A stretch of 62,862 nt of DNA. Origin: Candidatus Microgenomates bacterium. Lineage in GTDB: Bacteria > Patescibacteriota > Microgenomatia > UBA1406 > GWC2-37-13. The position numbers and the translations under genes are program-made. Shown here piece by piece: positions 13,652 through 57,453 of this stretch (the stretch's first letter is position 1; every line of letters starts with the position of its first letter). The notes under the pieces are model-generated. The model was not told the origin of the DNA. It saw only the letters and a program-made list of their open reading frames with translations, and made no database searches. The stretch spans positions 1 to 62,862 of the forward strand of contig JAHFKS010000001.1 of NCBI GenBank assembly GCA_023245215.1. The letters run 5' to 3'.

Positions 13652-15474
13652 TGTATAGACCAAAAGGTAAAAATCAAAAATCAAAAATAATCGGTTTGTT
13701 GGTGTTGCTGGCTTTTTTCGTTTTATTTATTGTTCTTCCGGTATTAAAGATAAAGTCAAAGGCGACCGCCTTAATGGCTTCGGCAAGAGAAATGAAAGCG
13801 GTATTTGCTAAAAATGATATCACTCTTTTGAAGTCAAAGCTGGGCGGGTTCTCCGACCAATATAAGGACTTTGAAAAAACATCCCAGTCAATCTACTGGT
13901 TGTCTTTTATACCCTATGTTTCAGATTTCAAAAACGGCGTCGAAGCCGGCAGTTATGTCGTCAAAGCGGGTCAAGAGTCGGTCCTGGCCATTGAGCCTTA
14001 TGCCGATTTGATCGGTTTTAAAAAAGGGGAAGTATCCTTTGTAGAAAAGTCAGCCGAAGACAGGCTGCAGACCGCCGTGTTGACGTTGGACAAACTGGTG
14101 CAGAAAGTCGACCCGATCTCCGCCGACATCGAAAAGGCCAATGAAAAAATATCAAAGATAAACCCGGATCGTTATCCAGGAAAGATAGGCAAATCAGATA
14201 TTAAAGGCCAGATCAATAATATCAAAGAACAGTTTGCCGGCGTGAGTTCACTTTTCGTCGACGCCAAACCTCTTATAAAAAAACTGCCGGAGCTTCTTGG
14301 CAGCAAAGAAGAAAAGACATATCTGATGCTTTACCAAAACGATAAAGAAAGGCGGGCGACCGGAGGCTTCCTGACTTTTTACGCCGTCATGAAGATAAAA
14401 GGCGGAAAAATTTCCATTGCCCATTCCGACGACATCTATTCGCTGGACGCCACGATAAACGAAAGGCCGAAGACTCCAAGGGAAATCCTGACTTACCATA
14501 AAGGCGTCAACGCTTTTTATATTAGAGACAGCAACCTTTCCCCTGACTTCGTCCAGTCGATTAAATTATTCAACAGCCTTTACCAAAATAGCGGCGCAAA
14601 AGTACGCTATGACGGCATCATCGCCCTGGATTCGAAGATACTGGTTGACATGCTGACAATTTTCGGCGACACTCAGGTTGACGGAATCAACTTTTCTGCA
14701 AAGACAGACAAAAGATGCGACTGCGCCCAGGTTATTTACACACTTTTTGACATCGTTGACAGGCCGGTGGGCTATTTCAAGGAAAACAGGAAGGGAATTT
14801 TGGGAGACTTGATGTACTCGCTTTTTTATAAAGCCATCGGTTATTCGCCTTCAAAATATTGGGGGACGCTGATGCAGACGATGTATCAAAACCTCCAGGA
14901 AAAACACATCCTGCTTTATTTTGTTGACTCTGACGTCCAAAAGTCTGTCGAACAGCTGGATTTTGCCGGGAGGATACGGGATTACAAGGGCGACTACCTG
15001 CACATCAACAGCGTCAACTTTGCCGGGGCAAAAGCCAACTTGTTTGTCAGCGAAAAAGTTGACTCAAAAACAAACGGTAAAAACCGGGAAGTGACTGTAG
15101 ATTTCAGAAATCCTTATCCTCATTCGGACTGCAACCTTGAGCGGGGAGGCCTGTGTCTCAACGCGACTTTGAGAAACTGGATTCGTTTTTACGTTCCCAA
15201 AGGCTCCAAGCTTGTGAGCTTTCAGGGTTCGGAGAAAAAAGTCCAGACCTATGACGAACTGGATAAGACGGTTTTTGAAGGATACCTTGAAGTGCCGACC
15301 CAAGGCAAAGCAACGGTCATCGTCAAATACATCCTGCCTTCCGGAGTCTCCACCGATTCGATGATGGTCCAAAAGCAGCCCGGCGTGACAGGCCAGGAGT
15401 GGAAAGTCACCGTAGACAACAAAAAAATCTTCGAAGGCATTCTGGAAAAAGATACAGTATGGCGCGGACATTAA
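13651..15474 (+). CDS. DUF4012-like membrane-anchored protein
   Basis: N-terminal TM; YLMLYQN..ERRATGGF, RDSNLSPDF, KANLFV, QKQPG; start at ATG 13651 overlapping the upstream stop. Confidence 0.78.
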   Translation: MYRPKGKNQKSKIIGLLVLLAFFVLFIVLPVLKIKSKATALMASAREMKAVFAKNDITLLKSKLGGFSDQYKDFEKTSQSIYWLSFIPYVSDFKNGVEAGSYVVKAGQESVLAIEPYADLIGFKKGEVSFVEKSAEDRLQTAVLTLDKLVQKVDPISADIEKANEKISKINPDRYPGKIGKSDIKGQINNIKEQFAGVSSLFVDAKPLIKKLPELLGSKEEKTYLMLYQNDKERRATGGFLTFYAVMKIKGGKISIAHSDDIYSLDATINERPKTPREILTYHKGVNAFYIRDSNLSPDFVQSIKLFNSLYQNSGAKVRYDGIIALDSKILVDMLTIFGDTQVDGINFSAKTDKRCDCAQVIYTLFDIVDRPVGYFKENRKGILGDLMYSLFYKAIGYSPSKYWGTLMQTMYQNLQEKHILLYFVDSDVQKSVEQLDFAGRIRDYKGDYLHINSVNFAGAKANLFVSEKVDSKTNGKNREVTVDFRNPYPHSDCNLERGGLCLNATLRNWIRFYVPKGSKLVSFQGSEKKVQTYDELDKTVFEGYLEVPTQGKATVIVKYILPSGVSTDSMMVQKQPGVTGQEWKVTVDNKKIFEGILEKDTVWRGH

Positions 15475-17358: not shown

Positions 17359-17814
17359 ATGAAGCCAGAATATAAAAAGTATTTGATAATAGGCGGAGTG
17401 GTGGTTTTGTTAGTAGTTGGTTATTGGCTGTTTGCGCGCAACACGATTGTCAAAAAACAAACAGCTGATGAAACCCCGACAGAGCAGGTTTTGCCGACGG
17501 TTGACAGTTCGGTAAAAGTCTCTTTGAAAGCCGTGAGCGCCAACAAAGAAGTTAGTTTGGAAGTCTCCGGAATGCCAGCCGGCACCCAGTCGGTCGACTA
17601 TGAACTGTCTTACCAGACAGCCGCCCAGGGTTTGCAGGGAGTTATCGGAACCGTATCTTCAGACGGCCAGACAAGTTTCAAGAAGCAGCTAACTTTGGGG
17701 ACGTGTTCTTCCGGCACCTGTGTCTACCACCAGGTGGTGGGGAAAATTAATCTGACTCTTAAGTTCACGGGAGATTATGGAGAGAAATTATTCGAAAAAG
17801 AATTTGCGCTATAA
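17359..17814 (+). CDS. Hypothetical membrane-anchored protein (TLGTCSSGTCVYH motif)
   Basis: N-terminal TM, beta-rich ectodomain with a Cys pair. Confidence 0.7.
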   Translation: MKPEYKKYLIIGGVVVLLVVGYWLFARNTIVKKQTADETPTEQVLPTVDSSVKVSLKAVSANKEVSLEVSGMPAGTQSVDYELSYQTAAQGLQGVIGTVSSDGQTSFKKQLTLGTCSSGTCVYHQVVGKINLTLKFTGDYGEKLFEKEFAL

Positions 17815-17848
17815 AAATTTAAAATTTAACATTTGATTTTTGTTATTT
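17814..17848. repeat. Degenerate heptamer tandem array (5 units)
   Basis: AAAATTT AAAATTT AACATTT GATTTTT GTTATTT; AACATTT and GTTATTT also occur at 30457-30484. Confidence 0.55.
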
Positions 17849-29781: not shown

Positions 29782-30044
29782 AATATAAAGATATTTTCAC
29801 TGCAGAGGTGTAAAAGCTTCAAATATTTTTTCAGCGTTCTTTCAGAATAGGAAAATATTCTTAGAGTAAATATGAAAAGAAAGATTTTTAAGCTGTTTCG
29901 ACTCATAAAAAGGATTTTCTTCAAAAAAAGAATTAGGATTCCGGCGAGGATTTTTTTTCCCAAAAAGTTTGCCGAACTTTTAATCCCAACTCAATCGCAT
30001 TTTCCTTCACTTGGCATTCATAGGATAAGAGATACACCTTAATG

Positions 30045-30079
30045 CAATAACAAATGATAAATGTTAAATGATAAATCAA
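30045..30079. repeat. Heptamer array, left arm of an inverted repeat
   Basis: CAATAAC AAATGAT AAATGTT AAATGAT AAATCAA. Confidence 0.8.
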
Positions 30080-30089
30080 TAATAAATTT

Positions 30090-30461
30090 TTAAATTTTGC
30101 AATTCCTTGTTATAGCTGAAAAAATGAGTACTAACTCATGGGTTTCTTGCCATAATTTTCTTAGTTCCTCTTTTTTATCTGGCAAGGTATAAGCCAACAT
30201 TCTCAACCAATGAGTAGTCTCTTTTGCTTCTTTTTTACATAGGCTTATTTTATTTTTAAAGTCGCGTTTTGTGTCACAGCCGTTAGCCTCCATATAGTTA
30301 GCTCCGATACTGGTGGCGCTTCTTACAAGTTGTTTTATTAATGGTTCAGTAACAAGGTTAGTTTTTATTTTCATGCAAAACGAAATAACTTCTTGACCAA
30401 GCTTAGCCGTTCTTTCTTCCAAATCAAATTTATCATTTGAATTTTGAATTTGATTTATCAT
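30090..30461 (-). CDS. Four-helix-bundle protein (23S rRNA IVP-like family)
   Basis: DLEERT, KQLVRSATSIGANYMEA, DFKNKISLCKKEAKETTHWL, ELVLIF. Confidence 0.92.
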   Translation of the reverse strand: MINQIQNSNDKFDLEERTAKLGQEVISFCMKIKTNLVTEPLIKQLVRSATSIGANYMEANGCDTKRDFKNKISLCKKEAKETTHWLRMLAYTLPDKKEELRKLWQETHELVLIFSAITRNCKI

Positions 30462-30484
30462 TTGTTATTTAACATTTAACATTT
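30429..30484. repeat. Heptamer array, right arm of the inverted repeat (overlaps the start codon)
   Basis: Minus strand reads AAATGTT AAATGTT AAATAAC AAATGAT AAATCAA ATTCAA AATTCAA. Confidence 0.8.
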
Positions 30485-30569
30485 ATTTAGCTTTTTGTCA
30501 GTCGCATATCTGCTACAAAGATAACCATTTAAGGCGTCAGGAAAAGATATGTGGTAGAATATTAGTTCT

Positions 30570-30815
30570 ATGAAAACACATACTTCGGTGGTTCAGGCTG
30601 TTACGAAAACAACTCCTGGGAAAAGCATAAAGTTATATGACGTGCCTGAACTTTTGGATACGACGTATGATGCCTGCAATATCGAGGTCGGCGAACCTAT
30701 CCAAAGGGCCAGAGTGGGTAACTTGATTCATATCATCGGATTGGCCTGTATTTTGTGCGAAGCGAGTCAGCGTACTCTTGCCGAAGGCGGCTGTCCGATC
30801 TTTCTCAGAAGGTAA
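30570..30815 (+). CDS. Small hypothetical protein with four Cys
   Basis: 81 aa, CxxC, TGGTAGAAT upstream. Confidence 0.55.
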   Translation: MKTHTSVVQAVTKTTPGKSIKLYDVPELLDTTYDACNIEVGEPIQRARVGNLIHIIGLACILCEASQRTLAEGGCPIFLRR

Positions 30816-30858
30816 CGGCTTGACAAATGCTTCTTACGATTATAGACTATTCTCCAAC

Positions 30859-31680
30859 ATGCCTTTTAATCCTGGAGAAATGCTGAGAAAGTTTCGCGGA
30901 GCACTTTCATTAAAAAAAGAAATTCCCACTTTCGGAATAAAAGATATCGAACCGAGAGATGGTATGAACAGACTTCGCATAAGACTTGCTAACACCAATT
31001 TTTATCTTCCGATGGTCCACCTCAATTTTCCCGGAGTCGTAGAAAAAGCCCTCGGCTGGTTTGACCCGAATCCGCTAGTAAATGAAGCGCTTGACAGAGC
31101 GGCTACTGAAACGATGTATCAAATGTTAAAAAAAATGAAACCCAAAGTAGTCGTCATGACTAACTCGACCAAGTCAGAGAATTTTATAAAAGAAGCCTAT
31201 AAAAGATTGCCCCCGGGAACGCGTTTAGTTATCCTGCCGAGCGGCGATAAAAACGCCAAAGTCGCTGAACGTTCTACAGACATGAAGTTAGTCCATTTTG
31301 TTCCTGTCACCGGGACGGAAAAAGACATGGGCTATCCGAAACAAATTGAAGGTGAAAAAGAATATCTAAGTCTAGAGCAGTTGAAAGAACTCTGTCCGGA
31401 CGGAGAAGGGCTTGTCATCGCCGACGACGTCTATACCACCGGAGCGACTATCACGGCAATGGAGCAGGTGTTGGGATTGAATGAAAAAAGCAAACACCAG
31501 ATAGCTGTCATTGCCAACGAAAAAGAATTCAACGGCGAATATGTTCCAAAAAGGACGCCAAAAAATCTTCATGCGGCTTTCATCCTGACAGAATTTGTCG
31601 ACCTCGACAAGCTTGGAATTGACCGGAAGAAACTATTCTTCTACGACAAACCAAATATACCTGCGGCAATAGTGGAGTAA
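30859..31680 (+). CDS. Type I phosphoribosyltransferase (purine PRT-like)
   Basis: PRPP-binding motif LVIADDVYTTGAT; start moved to ATG 30859. Confidence 0.78.
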   Translation: MPFNPGEMLRKFRGALSLKKEIPTFGIKDIEPRDGMNRLRIRLANTNFYLPMVHLNFPGVVEKALGWFDPNPLVNEALDRAATETMYQMLKKMKPKVVVMTNSTKSENFIKEAYKRLPPGTRLVILPSGDKNAKVAERSTDMKLVHFVPVTGTEKDMGYPKQIEGEKEYLSLEQLKELCPDGEGLVIADDVYTTGATITAMEQVLGLNEKSKHQIAVIANEKEFNGEYVPKRTPKNLHAAFILTEFVDLDKLGIDRKKLFFYDKPNIPAAIVE

Positions 31681-31683
31681 TAA

Positions 31684-32781
31684 TTATTGATTTCCCTTCA
31701 TTGAAAAATCAGGAAGCTTTTGTGGAAGTTTTGTGTTAAACCGGCGGGCAAATTCTAATATGTGATCCCGGTGAAACGGACCCTCTTTGAGTGCAGCGGC
31801 AAAGACGGCGTCGTGGTCAATCAGCAAACTTTGCTCTCCTCCAACCAAATCAGTGCCAAGACCGAAGGCAACATAATTAAATTCCTTTTCCTCTTTAAAC
31901 CTCTGTCTCATAGTTGCCAGCTCGGAAGTGATGCCCATATCAAATAACATTGAAAGCTTGTCGATTCCGCCTTCACCATAAACTTTATTAACTAAATGCT
32001 GCAGGTTTCCTGTTTTTACCCGGTCAAAGCCGGCATCAAGCAGGGCGACTTCGTAAAAGCTCTGGTATTCGCTGGTGCCGGGAGTGCCGATTGCAATAGC
32101 AGGAAAGACGCGGTCATAACCAACTTCTTTGGCATAATCAAGAAAAGCTTTGGCAACTTCCGGGTTGCTCGAACGTCCGGCTTTTGCCTGAAAATGGTTT
32201 CCTTCCTTATCATCAAGATGCGACCTTGGGCCGTGGCCGGGATGGATGATATTTGTCAGCTCGGTATCGTCTAAGATAAGCCCTAAGTCTCCTGATTTCA
32301 AAGGGTGGTCCTCGCGGACGCCTGTCACATAAGTCAAAACAATTAAAGGATCGACTCCGTCCTTGGTTCTTTGTCTTCTGACCAGTTCTTTAATGACGTT
32401 GAGTTGATGGGATACGATCATCGGCCCCATTTCAACTCCAGCCCATTCATTTGGGTGGGCGCGGCCGTTAAAAAAAAGCATTCCATCGTTGTATGAAACA
32501 GTGCCTTCGTGGCCTTTGATTTCCGGCGGGACAAAACCGTAAAAATTCCCTTTACCGTAGTCGCCGATCTTTTCAGTTTCATCGGGAGGAGTCAAGCCCA
32601 TCGTGCAAAGATTGTATAAAAGAGGGAGGGACATATTCCTTTTAAGAAAGTATTTTTCAATGGCATCGGCATCCCTTATTATTGAAGCGGTTTCTTTTTT
32701 TTGCTGATTCATCCTTTCGCGGACTTTGTAATGGATGTCGTCCCTGTCGAATCGTCTTCTTAGCGCGTCATATACACTCAT
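31684..32781 (-). CDS. Divergent purine nucleoside phosphorylase/MTAP-family protein
   Basis: GHEG, NGRAHPNE, GDLGLILDD, EYQSFYE, DMGITSE, GLGTD occur in the order of trimeric PNP motifs. Confidence 0.65.
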   Translation of the reverse strand: MSVYDALRRRFDRDDIHYKVRERMNQQKKETASIIRDADAIEKYFLKRNMSLPLLYNLCTMGLTPPDETEKIGDYGKGNFYGFVPPEIKGHEGTVSYNDGMLFFNGRAHPNEWAGVEMGPMIVSHQLNVIKELVRRQRTKDGVDPLIVLTYVTGVREDHPLKSGDLGLILDDTELTNIIHPGHGPRSHLDDKEGNHFQAKAGRSSNPEVAKAFLDYAKEVGYDRVFPAIAIGTPGTSEYQSFYEVALLDAGFDRVKTGNLQHLVNKVYGEGGIDKLSMLFDMGITSELATMRQRFKEEKEFNYVAFGLGTDLVGGEQSLLIDHDAVFAAALKEGPFHRDHILEFARRFNTKLPQKLPDFSMKGNQ

Positions 32782-32868
32782 AAGAATTTTAATAATAGTA
32801 TAGGCAATTAAATCGTTAAATCAAGCGGATTGAAATTTTGGGAAGAAAATTATAGAATAGGCTGTCTT

Positions 32869-33924
32869 ATGGCTGAAATCAAAAAAAGAACTAGACGGCC
32901 AGAAACAATCAGGATTCCGGAAGGAAGAAGTCCGGGATACAACAGATGGATTGAAAACGGGGCGAAACTCCTAAAAAAAGAACTTCCTTTTGAAGGGCCG
33001 GCAGATGTTTCAATTACAGTCGGATCAGGGCTCTCTTCAATCGTTGACTTCATGCAGCTGCAAAACGTCCGCCACATACCCTATGAAAATATCGGCCTGC
33101 CTATTGGTGTTAATCAGCGGCATAAAAAAGAAATCATTGCCGGTATAACACCCGAAGGAAAAAAAATAATTATCGTCAACGGCCGTACTCATGCTTATGA
33201 AATTCCGGAAAACGGAATTAAAACAAAAAGATGGGGACAGCTGGACAGAATGGAGCTGGCAACAGGGTACATCGCCATGCTTAATGAAATCGGCGTGGAA
33301 AACATGATACTGACCTGCGCCGCCGGCGGCATCAATCACCCGATGAATGACGGCGAAGAAAAACCATTTAAACAAGAAAACCTTCCTGTTATCAGCATGA
33401 TCGGAGCGGATTTAAACAGAGCTTATCCTAATCCGAATTTGGGCCACTATAAATCGAGGCGGGGAGATTTTTTCGGATTAAAAGACGCTGATAAAATCTT
33501 AATGTCGATGTTCGGACAGAGCATGGCTGATACAGGAGAAACAGGAGAGATCCCAAGCGTCTATTACATCACTAGTAAATCAACTCCCAACTTTGAAGAT
33601 AAAGGAGTAATTTATGACGCGGCTTTCAGCGGCGGCCAGGTAGTCGGAATGTCTTTTTCATATGAAAAAGAGTTTATCAGCGGCATGGATAATATCGGTA
33701 GGTTTATGGGAATCGCCGTTGTCACCAATCCCGTCGAACTGGTTTATGCAAATCCGTCTCCATTTAGGACAATGCCTTCTATCTCCATTAATGAAATAAG
33801 GCAGCACCGGGCCCAGGAATTTGAGCTGGCTTTCCACGCCACCGACGAGGAAGTCGGGAGGATAGGCAGGCTGGCAGTGGAAAGATTGGGAAAAGGCTTG
33901 ACACAGATGGTCAAATCCTTATAA
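32869..33924 (+). CDS. Purine nucleoside phosphorylase family protein
   Basis: TVGSGL, NGRTHAYE, LTCAAGGIN, PNFE, VVGMS..YE, VVTN; start moved to ATG 32869. Confidence 0.8.
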   Translation: MAEIKKRTRRPETIRIPEGRSPGYNRWIENGAKLLKKELPFEGPADVSITVGSGLSSIVDFMQLQNVRHIPYENIGLPIGVNQRHKKEIIAGITPEGKKIIIVNGRTHAYEIPENGIKTKRWGQLDRMELATGYIAMLNEIGVENMILTCAAGGINHPMNDGEEKPFKQENLPVISMIGADLNRAYPNPNLGHYKSRRGDFFGLKDADKILMSMFGQSMADTGETGEIPSVYYITSKSTPNFEDKGVIYDAAFSGGQVVGMSFSYEKEFISGMDNIGRFMGIAVVTNPVELVYANPSPFRTMPSISINEIRQHRAQEFELAFHATDEEVGRIGRLAVERLGKGLTQMVKSL

Positions 33925-41945: not shown

Positions 41946-44084
41946 ATGAAATCTTTCTGGCGAGGACTATATCATTTAGCAAACGTCTTCATTTTCATTG
42001 GTGAAATTACTCAATGGCCTTTTAAATTTTTATTCCGTTTTCTTGCCAAACTTTTTAATCTAATCAGGGAAAAAATATCAGCCATTCAACTTCCAAAAAT
42101 AACCCTTGATTCAATTTCCATTCCTGTCCGGTATTTTCTATTGGGAGCTTTGACCACCGCCGTGATTTTTATAACTTATCAATCCTATCTTTTTGTAAAA
42201 GCCCTGCCGTCGCCGGACAACATCGGCAAAGTGAACTTTCCTCTTTCAACCCATATTTATGACAGGAACGGCAGCCTTTTATATGAGATCTTCCGCGACC
42301 AGAACCGGACCCAGGTTTCCTTAAAAAATTTACCCCAGTATGTTGTTCAGGCGACAATCGCAATCGAAGACAAAGATTTTTACAGACACAACGGCGTTGC
42401 TTTATTCGGAGGGATATTGAGGGCGATAAAAGAAACAATATTTAACAAGAGCATTCAGGGCGGATCCACTATTACTCAGCAGTTGGTTAAAAGCGCTCTT
42501 TTGACCCCTGAAAGGACAGTAGAAAGAAAGATCAAAGAAATTATTCTTGCGCTTTGGACAGAGAAACTTTACAGCAAGGACCAGATTTTGGAAATGTATT
42601 TCAACCAGGTGCCTTATGGCGGATCTTCTTACGGTATTGAAGAAGCTGCCAAAACTTATTTTGGCAAATCAGCCAAGGAACTGACATTGGACGAAGCCGC
42701 CCTGCTCGCGGGTTTGCCGCAGGCGCCTTCGGTTTATTCTCCATATACCAATCCGGAAGCTGCTTTAAAAAGGAGAAACGAAGTACTTGATGCCATGGCA
42801 AAGCAAGGATATATAGATGAGAAGTCAAAAGTCAAAAGTGAAAATTCAAAATTGGAAGTGCTGCCGCCAAAGACATCGATAGTGGCGCCCCACTTTGTTT
42901 TTTATACAAAAAGCCAGCTCGAGTCGAATTATGGAATCGAGAAAGTTGAAGAGGGTGGTCTGAAAGTCACCACAACTTTGGACAGTGAGATTCAGAGGCA
43001 GGCGGAAACAGTACTTAGCGAAGAGCTCGACAAAATCAGCTATTTGAATGTGACCAACGGAGCCATATTGGTGACGCGGCCGTCAACCGGGGAGATTCTG
43101 GCCATGGTCGGCTCGGTCAATTATTTCCAGCAGCCCTGGGGGGCTTTCAACGTGACGACTGCTTTGCGCCAGCCGGGAAGCTCTATAAAACCGATAATGT
43201 ACTCGCTGGCTCTGCAAAACGGGTATACGGCGGCTTCGATAATCGACGACAGCCCGGTGGTTTTTAGATCGCCCGGTTCTCCGCCTTACCAGCCGGTAAA
43301 CTATGACGGAAAATTCCACGGCAAAGTCCCACTCCGTTATGCTTTGGCAAATTCCTACAACATTCCGGCCGTCAAAACCTTAAATACAATCGGCGTTGAT
43401 AAATTTATTGACTTTGCCGAAAAACTCGGCATCGATACCTGGCATGACCGCTCGCGCTTTGGACTCTCTTTGACTTTGGGTGGGGGAGAAGTAACGATGG
43501 TCGACATGGCCGAAGCTTTTGGAACTTTGGCAAATCAAGGCTACAAGCTTCCATTGAGCTATTTTTTGAAAATTCAGGATAACTCGGGCGCCACAATAAA
43601 AGAGCTGAGGCCGTTTAAAATCAGGGAGATGGATCCGGCGGTTTCCTATATTATGTCTGATATACTTTCGGACAATCAGGCAAGGACCTGGGCTTTCGGG
43701 CCGGGCTCAACTTTGGAAATTCCCGGCTATAAAGTGGCCGTCAAGACTGGTACGACCAATGACAAAAGGGACAACTGGACAATCGGTTATACTCCGGATT
43801 TTCTGGTGGCGGTCTGGGTGGGCAACAATGATAATTCCCCAATGAATCCATACCTGTCATCGGGTATTACCGGCGCTTCGCCAATATGGAACAGAGTGAT
43901 GAGTTATCTTTTGAAGAACTACGGTGACGGCAACCGTTGGTATGAAAAGCCCGACGATATTGTTGAGAAGACCTGTTTTTTCGGCAAGACAGAATATTTT
44001 GTCAAAGGAACAGAGAACAAAGCAAACTGCAGCAAAGATGCTTTGGCAACTCCTACGCCAACACCTAGTCCTAAACCTCAATAG
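41946..44084 (+). CDS. Class A penicillin-binding protein (PBP1A family)
   Basis: AIEDKDFY, QGGSTITQQLVK, RKIKE; SSIK, SYN, KTGT. Confidence 0.95.
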   Translation: MKSFWRGLYHLANVFIFIGEITQWPFKFLFRFLAKLFNLIREKISAIQLPKITLDSISIPVRYFLLGALTTAVIFITYQSYLFVKALPSPDNIGKVNFPLSTHIYDRNGSLLYEIFRDQNRTQVSLKNLPQYVVQATIAIEDKDFYRHNGVALFGGILRAIKETIFNKSIQGGSTITQQLVKSALLTPERTVERKIKEIILALWTEKLYSKDQILEMYFNQVPYGGSSYGIEEAAKTYFGKSAKELTLDEAALLAGLPQAPSVYSPYTNPEAALKRRNEVLDAMAKQGYIDEKSKVKSENSKLEVLPPKTSIVAPHFVFYTKSQLESNYGIEKVEEGGLKVTTTLDSEIQRQAETVLSEELDKISYLNVTNGAILVTRPSTGEILAMVGSVNYFQQPWGAFNVTTALRQPGSSIKPIMYSLALQNGYTAASIIDDSPVVFRSPGSPPYQPVNYDGKFHGKVPLRYALANSYNIPAVKTLNTIGVDKFIDFAEKLGIDTWHDRSRFGLSLTLGGGEVTMVDMAEAFGTLANQGYKLPLSYFLKIQDNSGATIKELRPFKIREMDPAVSYIMSDILSDNQARTWAFGPGSTLEIPGYKVAVKTGTTNDKRDNWTIGYTPDFLVAVWVGNNDNSPMNPYLSSGITGASPIWNRVMSYLLKNYGDGNRWYEKPDDIVEKTCFFGKTEYFVKGTENKANCSKDALATPTPTPSPKPQ
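42822..42853 (+). repeat. In-frame heptamer array inside PBP1A
   Basis: AAGTCAA AAGTCAA AAGTGAA AATTCAA encoding KSKVKSENSK. Confidence 0.65.
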
Positions 44085-44091
44085 AAATTTA

Positions 44092-45345
44092 TTATTTCTT
44101 ATTTGTTATTTTATCGAAGCCCGTTAAAGGTTGCAGAGCTTTTGGTATAGATATGCTTCCGTCTTTGTTTTGATAGTTTTCCAGGAGTGCAATTAAGATT
44201 CTTGGTGAGGCAAGAGCAGTATTATTTAATGAAAAGCAAAATTCTGTTTCCCCGTCTTTTTTCCTGTATTTTATTTTCAGCCTCCTGGTTTGGAAGTCTC
44301 CCATGATTGAGTTAGACATGGTTTCTCCGTATGTCTTTCTGGAAGGCATCCAGGTTTCCGTATCGTATTTTTTAATTTGTGGTTCTCCCATGTCTCCGGT
44401 GCACATAAGCAGGACCCGGTAGGGGAGTTCGAGCTCTTCAAGAATTTCTTCGCAGTTTTTCTGCAGTTCTTCATGGAGTTTTTTTGCTTCCTCCACGTCA
44501 TTTTTGCCAATGATTACCTGTTCGATTTTCCAAAATTCGTGGAGGCGGTAGATGCCTTTGGTGTCTTTGCCGTAAGCTCCGGCTTCTTTCCGGAAGCAAG
44601 GGGAAAAAGCGACAAATTTTTTAGGCAGATCTTTTTCGTTTAAAATTTCTCCTGAATAATATGAGGTAACAGGCTGTTCGGCAGTCCCGGCCAGGTAAGC
44701 ATCCTCGTCATTAAGTTTATAAACATCCTGTTCGCTCCAGGGAAACTGGCCGGTGCCAAAAAGAGTCAATCTTTTTACAACTGCCGGGGCAATAAGAGGT
44801 GTATAGCCTTTTTTGACAAGTTTGGTAAAGACGTGAAAGAGCAAGGCAAATTGGAGGACTGCTCCTTCGTTTTTCAAAAAATAACCGCGGAACCCCGAGA
44901 CTTTAGCGCCTCTTTCAAGGTCAATCAAGTCGAGGCTTTCCCCCAGCTCGATGTGGGATTTTGGAGTGAAATCAAACTTTGGCAGTTTTCCCCACTTTCT
45001 TAATTCTTTGTTTCCGGATGCGTCGTGTCCGACAGGGACTTCGGGCAACGGGACGTTGGGAACAAATGAGAGCAATGAGTCTAATTGGGATTGGATTTTT
45101 GCCAATTCGTCTTCGATTTTTTTTAGCTCTTCTTTGATTACCTTACCTCGTTTAATGGTTTTTTCATCGGGTTTTTCATGGGTGGTTTTATTCCTTTCCT
45201 CCCGAAGAGTCTGGGTTTTTTGGATTAATTCCCGCCTCTTGTCGTCCAATTCCAGAATCTTATCAAGGTTGACGCTGCGGCCTTTGTTTTTTGCCGCTTC
45301 TTCTACTTTTTTCTTATTATTCCTTATAAAGTCCAATGACAACAT
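44092..45345 (-). CDS. serS: Serine--tRNA ligase
   Basis: GTAE, CFRKEAG, GIYRLHEFWKIE, NNTALASPR. Confidence 0.97.
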   Translation of the reverse strand: MLSLDFIRNNKKKVEEAAKNKGRSVNLDKILELDDKRRELIQKTQTLREERNKTTHEKPDEKTIKRGKVIKEELKKIEDELAKIQSQLDSLLSFVPNVPLPEVPVGHDASGNKELRKWGKLPKFDFTPKSHIELGESLDLIDLERGAKVSGFRGYFLKNEGAVLQFALLFHVFTKLVKKGYTPLIAPAVVKRLTLFGTGQFPWSEQDVYKLNDEDAYLAGTAEQPVTSYYSGEILNEKDLPKKFVAFSPCFRKEAGAYGKDTKGIYRLHEFWKIEQVIIGKNDVEEAKKLHEELQKNCEEILEELELPYRVLLMCTGDMGEPQIKKYDTETWMPSRKTYGETMSNSIMGDFQTRRLKIKYRKKDGETEFCFSLNNTALASPRILIALLENYQNKDGSISIPKALQPLTGFDKITNKK

Positions 45346-54765: not shown

Positions 54766-57453
54766 ATGCTAAATTTTTTGACTAAGTTTTTCGACTATAA
54801 TCAGAGGGAAATTAATCGTCTAAAGAAAAAAACCGAAGAAATTAACCGTCTTGAGGATAAGGCGAGAGACTTAAAAGACGCTGATTTTCTTAAAGAAACT
54901 AAGAGATTGAAGGAAATTGTCAGCGCCGACGAAACAAAGACCGATGAAATTATGCCTTGGGCTTTCGCCTTGGCCAGGGAAGCGGCTAGAAGAGTTCTCG
55001 GCCAGCGCCATTTTGACGTCCAATTAATGGCAGCGGTCGCGCTCCACGAAGGCAAGATTGCCGAGCAGAAAACCGGAGAGGGAAAAACACTTTCTGCGGT
55101 GCCGGCCCTTTACCTCAATGCGCTTTCCGGACACGGTTCTCATCTGGTGACAGTCAATGACTATTTGGCCAGGAGAGACGCCGGCTGGATGGGGAAAATC
55201 TTCCACTTTCTCGGTTTGAAGACTGCCTCCATGATCTCGGAAAAATCATTTCTTTACGATCCGAAGTACGTAGACAAAGAAGCCTTTGACAGGCGTTTGA
55301 GCAACCTCCGGCCGATAACCAGGAAGGAAGCTTATGAAGCAGACGTCACTTACGGGATAAACAGCGAGTTTGGATTCGACTATCTGCGAGACAATATGGC
55401 GCAAAATCCAAACGATCTTGTCCAGCGCGATTTTAACTTTGCCATTATAGACGAGGCCGATTCAGTCCTCATCGACGAAGCGAGGACGCCCCATATAATC
55501 TCAGCTCCATATGAGGAGGATACTTCAAAATATTACCGTTATGCCCAGATTGTCAACCAGCTGGATGGAAAAACCGATTTTGTCATCGACGAAAAACTGC
55601 GGACAGCCAACTTGAGCGAAGCCGGAATAAAAAAAATTGAAAGCCTTCTCGGAGTCAATAATATTTACGAAAAAGATTTTGACACTTTATTTCATGTTGA
55701 AGCTGCTTTAAAAGCCAGCGCTCTTTTCAGTCTGGACAAGGATTATATCGTCAAAGACGGCGAAGTAATCATCGTCGACGAATTCACCGGCAGGCTCCTT
55801 TATGGCCGGCGTTTCTCCGAGGGGCTGCACCAGGCCATTGAAGCCAAAGAAAAAGTTTCCATCCAGCGGGAATCAAAGACGCTGGCTACGGTATCTTTGC
55901 AGAACTATTTCAGGATGTACAAAAAGCTCGCCGGAATGACGGGTACGGCCGCCACAGAAGCCGAAGAATTCCACAAAATCTACAAGACCGACGTCGTCAT
56001 AATTCCGACCCACCTGAATATGGTGAGGAAAGACGAGCCGGACATGATTTATAAAACAGAAAGGGCCAAATATAATGCCGTTGTCGAAGACATCGCCAAT
56101 AACTATAAAGCCGGAAGACCGGTTCTTGTTGGTACGACATCGATCCAGAAAAATGAACTTCTGTCTTCACTTTTAAATAAAAAAGGCGTCCCTCATGAGC
56201 TGCTCAATGCGAAAAACCACGAAAGGGAGGCCGCCATCATTTCCAAAGCCGGTGAAAAAGGCGCAGTCACTGTCGCAACAAACATGGCGGGAAGAGGAGT
56301 CGATATCATCCTCGGAGGAGACAATACCGAAGAGACAAAGGATTGGCAGAAAAAACATGATGAAGTAGTCAAATTAGGAGGGTTATATGTTATCGGAACA
56401 GAAAGGCACGAATCGAGGCGGATCGACAACCAATTAAGAGGAAGGTCCGGAAGACAAGGCGACCCGGGCCAGTCGACTTTTTTTGTTTCCCTCGAAGACG
56501 ACCTGATGAGAATATTCGGCGGAGAGCAGATATCAAAGATTATGAATTTTCTCAACTTTCCGGAAGACCAGCCGTTATCGCACTCGATGGTGTCCAAAGC
56601 AATCGAACAGGCCCAGGTCAAAGTAGAAGGCTTTAACTTTGATATCAGAAAACACCTGGTTGACTATGATGACGTTTTGAACAAGCAGAGGGAAATCGTT
56701 TATTCGCTAAGGAGAAAAATTCTTTTCGGATCAGAGAGTAAAGACTTTTATCAAACCATGTATGAAGTTTTCAGCGAAGAGATAACCATTTTGGTCAATG
56801 CATATTCTTTGTCTGATGCTCCCTTATCGGAAGAAGATGTCAAAAAATTGGCCCAGGAATTAAATCTTATTACTTCGGTATCGGAAAAAGAAGTTTACGG
56901 GTTCATGAAAAACAAGGAGACCGAGAAACTGATAGAAACAGTAAATAAAAAAATAGAAGCAGAGTTTTTGAATAGGGAAAAAAAGCTCGGGAAAAAACTT
57001 TGGATAGAAGTTATCAAGGCTATTTTCCTGTCGACGATTGATAAATATTGGATGGACCACCTGACGGCCATAGAAGATTTAAGAGAGGGGATCAACCTGC
57101 GCGGTTATGCCCAGCTCGACCCGCTGGTTGAATACAAAAATTCCGCCTTCTTCATGTTTGAAAAACTTTTGGGCGACATAAATTTTGAAGTGTCAAGGAG
57201 GCTGTTAAAGGTAGAGGTAGAAGGTCCGGTTGTTGAACAAAAAAAAGAAGAGCCGATGATATTTAAATCTGCTTCCGCAGTAGATCCTTTTAATCAAACA
57301 AAGCAGAAAACAGGTAACCAATCATCGATAACCAATAACCAGACAACATCCAATACTCAAACGCCAAAAACAAGTCATCCTAAACTGGGCCGCAATGATC
57401 CATGCTGGTGCGGCAGCGGGAAAAAATATAAAAAATGCCATTATCCTAACTAA
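54766..57453 (+). CDS. secA: Preprotein translocase subunit SecA
   Basis: KTGEGKT, DEAD, ATNMAGRG, HESRRIDNQLRGRSGRQGDPG, SEC-C motif GRNDPCWCGSGKKYKKCH. Confidence 0.98.
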   Translation: MLNFLTKFFDYNQREINRLKKKTEEINRLEDKARDLKDADFLKETKRLKEIVSADETKTDEIMPWAFALAREAARRVLGQRHFDVQLMAAVALHEGKIAEQKTGEGKTLSAVPALYLNALSGHGSHLVTVNDYLARRDAGWMGKIFHFLGLKTASMISEKSFLYDPKYVDKEAFDRRLSNLRPITRKEAYEADVTYGINSEFGFDYLRDNMAQNPNDLVQRDFNFAIIDEADSVLIDEARTPHIISAPYEEDTSKYYRYAQIVNQLDGKTDFVIDEKLRTANLSEAGIKKIESLLGVNNIYEKDFDTLFHVEAALKASALFSLDKDYIVKDGEVIIVDEFTGRLLYGRRFSEGLHQAIEAKEKVSIQRESKTLATVSLQNYFRMYKKLAGMTGTAATEAEEFHKIYKTDVVIIPTHLNMVRKDEPDMIYKTERAKYNAVVEDIANNYKAGRPVLVGTTSIQKNELLSSLLNKKGVPHELLNAKNHEREAAIISKAGEKGAVTVATNMAGRGVDIILGGDNTEETKDWQKKHDEVVKLGGLYVIGTERHESRRIDNQLRGRSGRQGDPGQSTFFVSLEDDLMRIFGGEQISKIMNFLNFPEDQPLSHSMVSKAIEQAQVKVEGFNFDIRKHLVDYDDVLNKQREIVYSLRRKILFGSESKDFYQTMYEVFSEEITILVNAYSLSDAPLSEEDVKKLAQELNLITSVSEKEVYGFMKNKETEKLIETVNKKIEAEFLNREKKLGKKLWIEVIKAIFLSTIDKYWMDHLTAIEDLREGINLRGYAQLDPLVEYKNSAFFMFEKLLGDINFEVSRRLLKVEVEGPVVEQKKEEPMIFKSASAVDPFNQTKQKTGNQSSITNNQTTSNTQTPKTSHPKLGRNDPCWCGSGKKYKKCHYPN
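57315..57367 (+). repeat. In-frame heptamer array in the SecA C-terminal linker
   Basis: TAACCAA TCATCGA TAACCAA TAACCAG acaa CATCCAA TACTCAA. Confidence 0.55.

Follow-up and report, generated by a model that had tools for sequence, protein, structure and literature searches.

In the genome of a Candidatus Microgenomates bacterium, we found a compact cassette in which the gene of a small four-helix-bundle protein is enclosed by two inverted arrays of imperfect heptamers and preceded by a promoter-like motif. The cassette lies in the window, the whole stretch of 62,862 nucleotides that was analysed, and is part of a genome-wide family of similar cassettes and gene-less arrays. The reading that we favour, with about even confidence, is that of a protein-plus-repeat element operating at the DNA level: a basic protein would recognise the arrays as DNA, and host recombination would enable both the cassette and derivatives without the gene to spread. 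By its location, the window cassette is not an intervening sequence (IVS) of rRNA; it is best filed as working like a RAYT/REP system without a transposase. Neither the cassette class nor the link between gene and arrays was found described in the literature searched, chiefly the main texts of openly available papers.

The cassette is encoded on the minus strand. Its gene (30090..30461) specifies a protein of 123 aa with a pI of 9.1 and four predicted helices, which belongs to the TIGR02436/PF05635 four-helix-bundle family, as had been recognised from the sequence, with scores above the cut-offs (69.3 bits against 24 for TIGR02436 and 51.8 bits against 33.8 for PF05635). The 5' (upstream) arm (30425..30487, minus strand) is composed of TAAATGT/CAAATGA-type heptamers; its outer units (30453-30487) contain the ATG and the -10 position, and its inner units code for the N-terminus. 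The 3' (downstream) arm (30046..30089, minus strand) consists of imperfect tandem heptamers that are the reverse complement of the 5' arm. It starts 3 nt past the stop codon of a convergent 56-aa ORF (29872..30042, plus strand), which lies outside the cassette and has no Pfam match; a stretch homologous to this ORF occurs in genome G032 without an adjoining cassette. A 24-bp motif found across the genus (30496..30519, minus strand), absent from the original prediction, ends in a -35-like hexamer (30496-30501) and belongs to the cassette unit.

All ORFs flanking the cassette are on the plus strand, so that it is antisense to its neighbours. A DpnI-like gene and the 56-aa ORF precede it, and an 81-aa ORF and a PRTase-like gene follow. 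The neighbours are ORFs, and no Rfam match was found in the 3.3-kb locus around the gene, which agrees with the proposal of a compact, free-standing element outside rRNA with the build of an IVS. The DpnI-like gene (PF06044; 29338-29781, plus strand) encodes a single-domain protein of 147 aa that starts with a zinc ribbon, and shares an accessory island with a gene containing a YHYH domain. Within 30778-33924, the divergent PRTase-like gene, found in one of 43 genus genomes and in no other than the window's, adjoins one clear and one possible purine-nucleoside-phosphorylase-like gene. The window's genome (G000; 0.82 Mb assembled, 91% complete) encodes another family member on contig C21; the arms of this second cassette are inverted too and consist of a different heptamer.

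The pairing of the two arms holds exactly as it had been given: 30046-30062 is the perfect reverse complement of 30453-30469, and 30066-30079 that of 30450-30463. A third register of 14 bp pairs 30057-30070 with 30473-30486. The suggested folding around 30040-30490, carried out on the minus strand of 30030-30500, gave -95.5 kcal/mol (z -3.71; 0 of 100 shuffles equally good). Between the arms 23-30 pairs are predicted, and the start codon (ATG, 30461-30459) indeed lies in the right arm, with a predicted pairing probability of 0.7-1.0. The 17-bp match is the longest among 127 perfect inverted matches of at least 12 bp, spaced 200-1000 bp, in the 819-kb genome; it is no better than in unit-shuffled arms (p 0.48), which are likewise two inverted arrays from the same unit pool. 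The arms at this locus exceed chance, and the perfect 17-bp register is not special. Chance as the origin of the arms is ruled out by the fold z-score, the inverted-match ranking, the period-7 excess and the co-variation of the arms.

The same architecture recurs in the flanks of other family genes. We surveyed 126 distinct full-length loci, 46 from the genus and 80 from other sources: three additional relatives, seven viral contigs and named genomes from several phyla. Loci with a partial gene or short flanks were left out, as were duplicates, and the sample leans to the clade of the window protein. Period 7 was present upstream at 81, downstream at 80 and on both sides at 61 of the 126 loci, and every other period on both sides at four loci at most. 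Complementarity between the two arms of a locus had a median of 23, compared with 10 for cross pairs and 11 in direct orientation, and the own partner arm ranked first at 41 loci and in the top 5% at 83. The two arms of a locus co-vary, as the original prediction had anticipated for such a survey, and they also change with the clade of the protein. Units differ between loci and follow the protein tree (Mantel rho 0.48 for pairs below 55% identity), part of which may be due to physical linkage of arms and gene and hence co-inheritance. An arm has a median of 4.4 in-phase units, and these are similar across arms (5.05/7) and inside one arm (4.96/7). Where the gene upstream is co-directional (71 cases), its stop codon is at most 15 nt away from the outer end of the 5' arm in 46. 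In one protein clade (L042-L047) the arms are built from 9-base rather than 7-base units. A 4-nt phase break that looked conserved by eye is not claimed as a feature, as a test detected it in just 13 upstream and 8 downstream arms.

The stable fold and the paired AUG predicted for the window copy suit an IVS-like RNA module, in which the arms would base-pair within the transcript and conceal the start codon, and RNase III would cut the loop out. We regard this alternative as rather unlikely, and the evidence falls on both sides of it. An RNase III gene is present in the genome, and in G123 a 16S rRNA gene is interrupted in its 5' portion by a four-helix-bundle cassette with both heptamer arms (L316:1420-1870). 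The helix-45 IVS of Coxiella burnetii likewise has heptameric repeats at its 5' end, at the RNase III site (PMC4990558). Complementarity shows a small register-specific excess across the family (17.6 versus 16.1), with none at the window locus. Cassettes are co-directional with both neighbours at 56 of 107 loci and opposed to both at 8, a strong bias which indicates that transcription matters and which counts against the DNA-level reading. Against an RNA module, mismatches in the best register of 107 stems, read on the sense strand, comprised 164 G.U and 161 A.C pairs (A.A and T.T together 383), whereas a tRNA acceptor-stem control gave 10 G.U and 0 A.C. Sense and antisense duplexes were equally stable, the sense one being better in 57 of the 107. 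Of the long stem in several registers that had been proposed, the predicted hairpin and its three registers stand, but no register is special, and the start codon falls within the best stem at only 28 of 101 loci. Furthermore, no host sense transcript spans both arms of the window copy because it is antisense to its neighbours, and the cassette's own putative promoter would start transcription inside the 5' arm. The interior of the C21 cassette is flipped between its arms in two relatives, most orphan arrays are single arms in ORFs, and cutting an mRNA without rejoining it would split an operon. Because G.U bias is lacking, the duplexes are equally stable, the units are similar and the start codon is so rarely enclosed, two arrays kept to one shared unit fit the data better than a stem kept by pairing. 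RNA-level stem closure or excision, which had been put forward as one possible role, is therefore disfavoured as the main mechanism by these mismatch and start-codon counts together with the flipped interior and the antisense copy.

Mobility, raised as another possibility, is supported by close copies at unrelated sites and by the alleles of the C21 cassette. Three close pairs of cassettes (L007/L009, 91%; L054/L056, 85%; L015/L017, 81%) have unrelated neighbours. Their similarity is confined to a stretch that begins 125-145 nt before the gene core, approximately at the motif, and reaches the outer border of the 3' arm. Judged from these sequences, the mobile unit appears to run from the motif through the outer 3' arm and thus to extend beyond the 5' arm; with cassette copies at unrelated sites in related genomes, it probably moves as DNA. 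The C21 site (G000:C21:8184-8741; L283-L286) is bordered by the same two large host genes, both without Pfam matches, and the gap between them measures 33 bp in G061 compared with 541-584 bp in G000, G002 and G034, where it is filled. In G002 and G034 the cassette gene is reversed between collinear flanks, so that filled, flipped and empty alleles exist at one site. The flanks are 74-83% identical, which marks an old event that may have gone in either direction. This one old filled/empty comparison revealed no clear target-site duplication, and the empty gap retains the arm-like AATCTTTA. The motif of the C21 cassette lies inside its arms. The search for empty-site alleles was thus successful for the C21 cassette, but none was found for the window site, the flanks of which have few homologues among 61 relatives. 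Contigs assembled from three DNA runs of one study contained no joint across the window cassette; those contigs do show a skip of 192 bases, one side of which measures 28 bases, but it likely comes from another organism.

Heptamer arrays also occur at many positions in G000 away from the gene. A pattern-free scan of 819 kb yielded 42 arrays of period 7, compared with 0-9 for each of the remaining periods between 4 and 13, and a count of 35 stood against 0 in local shuffles; these two controls were used instead of a reversed pattern, which also rings on the near-symmetric arrays. At a looser threshold we detected 66 arrays, of which 10 have an inverted partner within 110 nt and 49 lie, in both orientations, within ORFs of at least 150 aa (crude ORF calls); the orphan arrays are mostly single arms inside ORFs. 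Gene-less arrays of the window are located at 42817-42854 (inside a penicillin-binding-protein-like ORF), 13661-13690, 17812-17844 (a short hairpin at a gene junction), 44084-44115 (between convergent genes) and 57315-57341. The leuS gene of G000 (L072; G000:C21:22260-23096) contains four in-frame heptamer arrays in variable loops. In other species (L083-L112), the same LeuRS loops hold arrays, palindromic inserts, which we take to be REP-like, or nothing, and the open frame of leuS varies from ~800 to >1000 aa across the genus.

Gene and arrays occur together across genomes, which substantiates the suspected tie to dispersed heptamer arrays. In a genus survey of 43 genomes, with the gene defined as a TIGR02436 match and arrays as four-unit pattern hits, the seven genomes without the gene had 0-3 hits (two of them are only 71% and 81% complete), compared with 16-234 in the 36 carriers. 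The seven gene-less genomes form three groups in a LeuRS tree (29 genomes, a single gene tree), and when 378 kb from six of these genomes were scanned without a preset pattern, one period-7 array was recovered. Across 201 genomes of the phylum, gene and arrays correlate with a rho of 0.62, the median being 1 hit without the gene and 57 with at least three genes; within-family contrasts went up in 18 cases and down in 5, with 1 tie. Exceptions exist in both directions: at least 15 hits, with a maximum of 105, were obtained in 9 of 84 gene-less genomes, and arrays are few in 5 of 46 gene-rich ones. Five of the nine array-rich gene-less genomes gave no clear match to a four-helix profile built in this analysis, and 22 loci from such genomes had no profile match to another cargo gene or a decayed four-helix gene between the arrays. 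In these genomes the gene may have been lost recently, or another partner may be used. Four genomes that are array-rich and have no detectable four-helix-bundle gene (G113, G137, G160 and G169; L225-L246) contain many inverted doublets, and at L226 a perfect long inverted repeat adjoins a tRNA-like sequence.

It is very unlikely, in our assessment, that the arrays are a by-product of slippage in AT-rich genomes, with a hitch-hiking gene and a protein unrelated to the repeats. Gene-less genomes do tend to higher GC, some of them retain many arrays, and the equivalence of the 17-bp match to unit-shuffled arms fits such a process. However, the period-7 specificity is sharp, and the orientation of the arms is fixed as inverted, with matching units at each locus. 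The scanned gene-less genomes have a GC of 0.375-0.443, compared with 0.403 in G000, and G065, which is more AT-rich than G000, has zero arrays in 80 kb. Three separate joint absences of gene and arrays within the genus also speak against slippage.

The protein itself provides further clues to how a DNA-level element might work. Its structure model consists of four helices (pLDDT 92.8), with 2RLD and 2GSC as the best Foldseek matches (TM 0.73-0.80). Avd of diversity-generating retroelements (DGRs) is a more distant structural match (PDB 4DWL; TM 0.60, 14% identity), in keeping with the structural relationship named in the original prediction. By analogy with solved homologues, which have five chains per entry, the protein is likely pentameric, and a four-copy complex prediction scored 0.13 against a mark of 0.42. 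Speculatively, the median of 4.4 units per arm would suit a five-membered ring. The proteins are basic throughout the family (pI >8 in 119 of 126). Because synonymous differences exceed non-synonymous ones in three of four close pairs, the gene is under purifying selection and its protein is maintained. Profile and structure searches gave no match of the protein to nuclease or recombinase families and no transposase, HUH (Y1) included, between the arms; only four-helix-bundle families matched.

These features relate the cassette to several known systems. With ORF-bearing rRNA IVSs (S23p/23S_rRNA_IVP) it shares the protein family and an ORF between complementary ends that are able to form a long stem; heptamers are likewise present in the Coxiella IVS, and both arms in the 16S copy of G123. 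The family is scattered in 16S and 23S rRNA insertions of CPR bacteria (bioRxiv 10.1101/2024.02.27.582315) and has been found between cas genes (PMC3936711). Unlike such IVSs, the window copy lies outside rRNA, is antisense to its neighbours, has its own promoter-like motif and forms part of the genome-wide family of cassettes and gene-less arrays. Homology between PF05635 and Avd has been stated (PMC10053308), and the family has been linked to Avd, an RNA-binding pentamer (bioRxiv 10.1101/2023.10.23.563531). The cassette shares the four-helix fold and basic character of the DGR protein, but no PF00078 reverse transcriptase match was found in G000 (91% complete), and no DGR genes adjoin the cassette. 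Compared with insertion sequences and MITEs, the imperfect inverted arms correspond to terminal inverted repeats, but the mobile unit runs past the 5' arm and a transposase gene is missing. In its behaviour the cassette resembles REPs, REPINs (defined in PMC3116915) and their RAYT: a small gene lies between inverted copies of a short repeat, the repeat is dispersed as singlets and as inverted or hairpin doublets, and its abundance follows the gene by genome, apart from the 9 of 84 gene-less exceptions. The cassette differs in that it contains no HUH/tyrosine transposase, its repeat is a tandem heptamer array instead of a single palindrome, and most copies of this repeat lie inside ORFs. Finally, dispersed heptamer arrays (TAACTGA and relatives) have been described in Beggiatoaceae, Cyanobacteria and Bacteroidetes (MacGregor 2015; PMC4679880); they resemble the present ones in unit grammar, period, patchy distribution and position near start codons and in ORFs, and the main text of that paper mentions no partner protein and no four-helix-bundle or IVS genes.

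In the DNA-level element that we favour, the basic, likely pentameric protein would bind the 7-base units as DNA, with about one subunit per unit. It would spread the whole cassette, from the promoter-like motif and first heptamer arm through the gene to the inverted arm, along with gene-less arrays, and host recombination enzymes would likely do the cutting and joining. The arms would have two roles, marking the ends for recognition and acting as an operator that covers the -10 box of the cassette itself. Single arms and inverted doublets that lack the gene would be non-autonomous offshoots, in the same relation to the cassette as that of REPs and REPINs to RAYT. An rRNA IVS would be a copy that inserted into an rRNA helix, where it is tolerated thanks to its removal by RNase III. 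Such an element would join two open puzzles, the role of the very large 23S_rRNA_IVP family and the presence of heptamer arrays in many bacteria, and would make the rRNA IVSs with an ORF just one of the places where a general cassette has landed. Clade-specific units offer a direct binding test, and gene-less lineages serve as natural controls. Since arrays rewrite loops of housekeeping proteins such as LeuRS, the system would also shape protein evolution in small-genome bacteria.

The upstream motif connects the cassette to host genes. It has 11 strong matches in G000 and 0 in the shuffled genome, and these precede both cassettes, recA, dprA, comM (Mg-chelatase-like), comEA (SLBB plus HhH), a topoisomerase zinc-ribbon gene, an HTH gene and two unknown ORFs, with one further match at a contig end. 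The motif loci L063-L071 are distributed over contigs C1, C7, C12, C18, C19, C21, C26 and C30. The best-scoring site belongs to a 71-aa ORF (L063), a candidate regulator, and the motif is nearly uniform inside each genome. It is present in all 43 genus genomes, gene-less ones included, and lies upstream of 26 of 46 genus cassettes (a count inflated by the matrix being seeded on those loci), 12 of 30 dprA genes and 0 of 25 leuS genes, as well as of unrelated accessory genes; among gene-less genomes it is clear before recA in just one of five. Because it also precedes recA, dprA, comM and comEA and occurs in gene-less genomes, the motif is a host promoter type carried by the cassette. In 10 of 27 cassettes a TAnnnT hexamer follows it at 17 bp, which places a -10 box inside the 5' arm; the window copy has an imperfect TAAATG at 17 bp. 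Outside the genus, the link between motif and cassette was found at 1 of 80 loci, and five other lineages, for which 30 of 52 cassettes were fetched, yielded no motif shared by cassettes and dprA/comM. We infer that the motif genes may form a competence regulon. An SOS box is not favoured, the promoter of the LexA-like gene itself having a different palindrome by eye; PMC8565304 cites a Patescibacteria LexA paper, in which the motif may already be described.

That the protein is a host regulator, a repeat-binding transcription or translation factor with the arrays as its operator network, autoregulatory arms and merely incidental movement, seems distinctly unlikely to us. Purifying selection on the gene and the overlap of the arms with the -10 box and start region fit this role, as do the arrays that are often situated between the motif and the starts of recA, dprA and comM in G000; translational control has been proposed for heptamer arrays near start codons (PMC4679880). 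A regulator is, however, difficult to reconcile with the patchy presence of the cassette (0-17 copies per genome, with units that differ between copies), with the 49 of 66 arrays inside coding sequence and with LeuRS loops that are filled with arrays, other palindromic inserts or nothing depending on the species.

For the DNA-level element, the least certain step concerns this genus, where expression of the cassette would be turned on together with the genes for DNA uptake and recombination and natural transformation would be the occasion of its spread. A bolder version, which we hold to be rather doubtful, is a class of selfish elements without an enzyme of their own, in which a competence-expressed, Avd-like ring protein would bind arrays on incoming or recombining DNA and bias integration. 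If true, an enzyme-less selfish element would propel its own gene, flanked by arms, as well as arrays without a gene across the genome and even into the loops of proteins. It would account for the orphan 23S_rRNA_IVP family and also for the surplus of 7-base repeats that many bacteria show. Cassettes are located directly or one gene downstream of dprA at 2 of 31 dprA loci (L265 in G019 and L275 in G008). In two genomes of other lineages comM is split (G261:C1, L336 and L337; G123:C1, L335 and L338), which suggests insertions of mobile elements.
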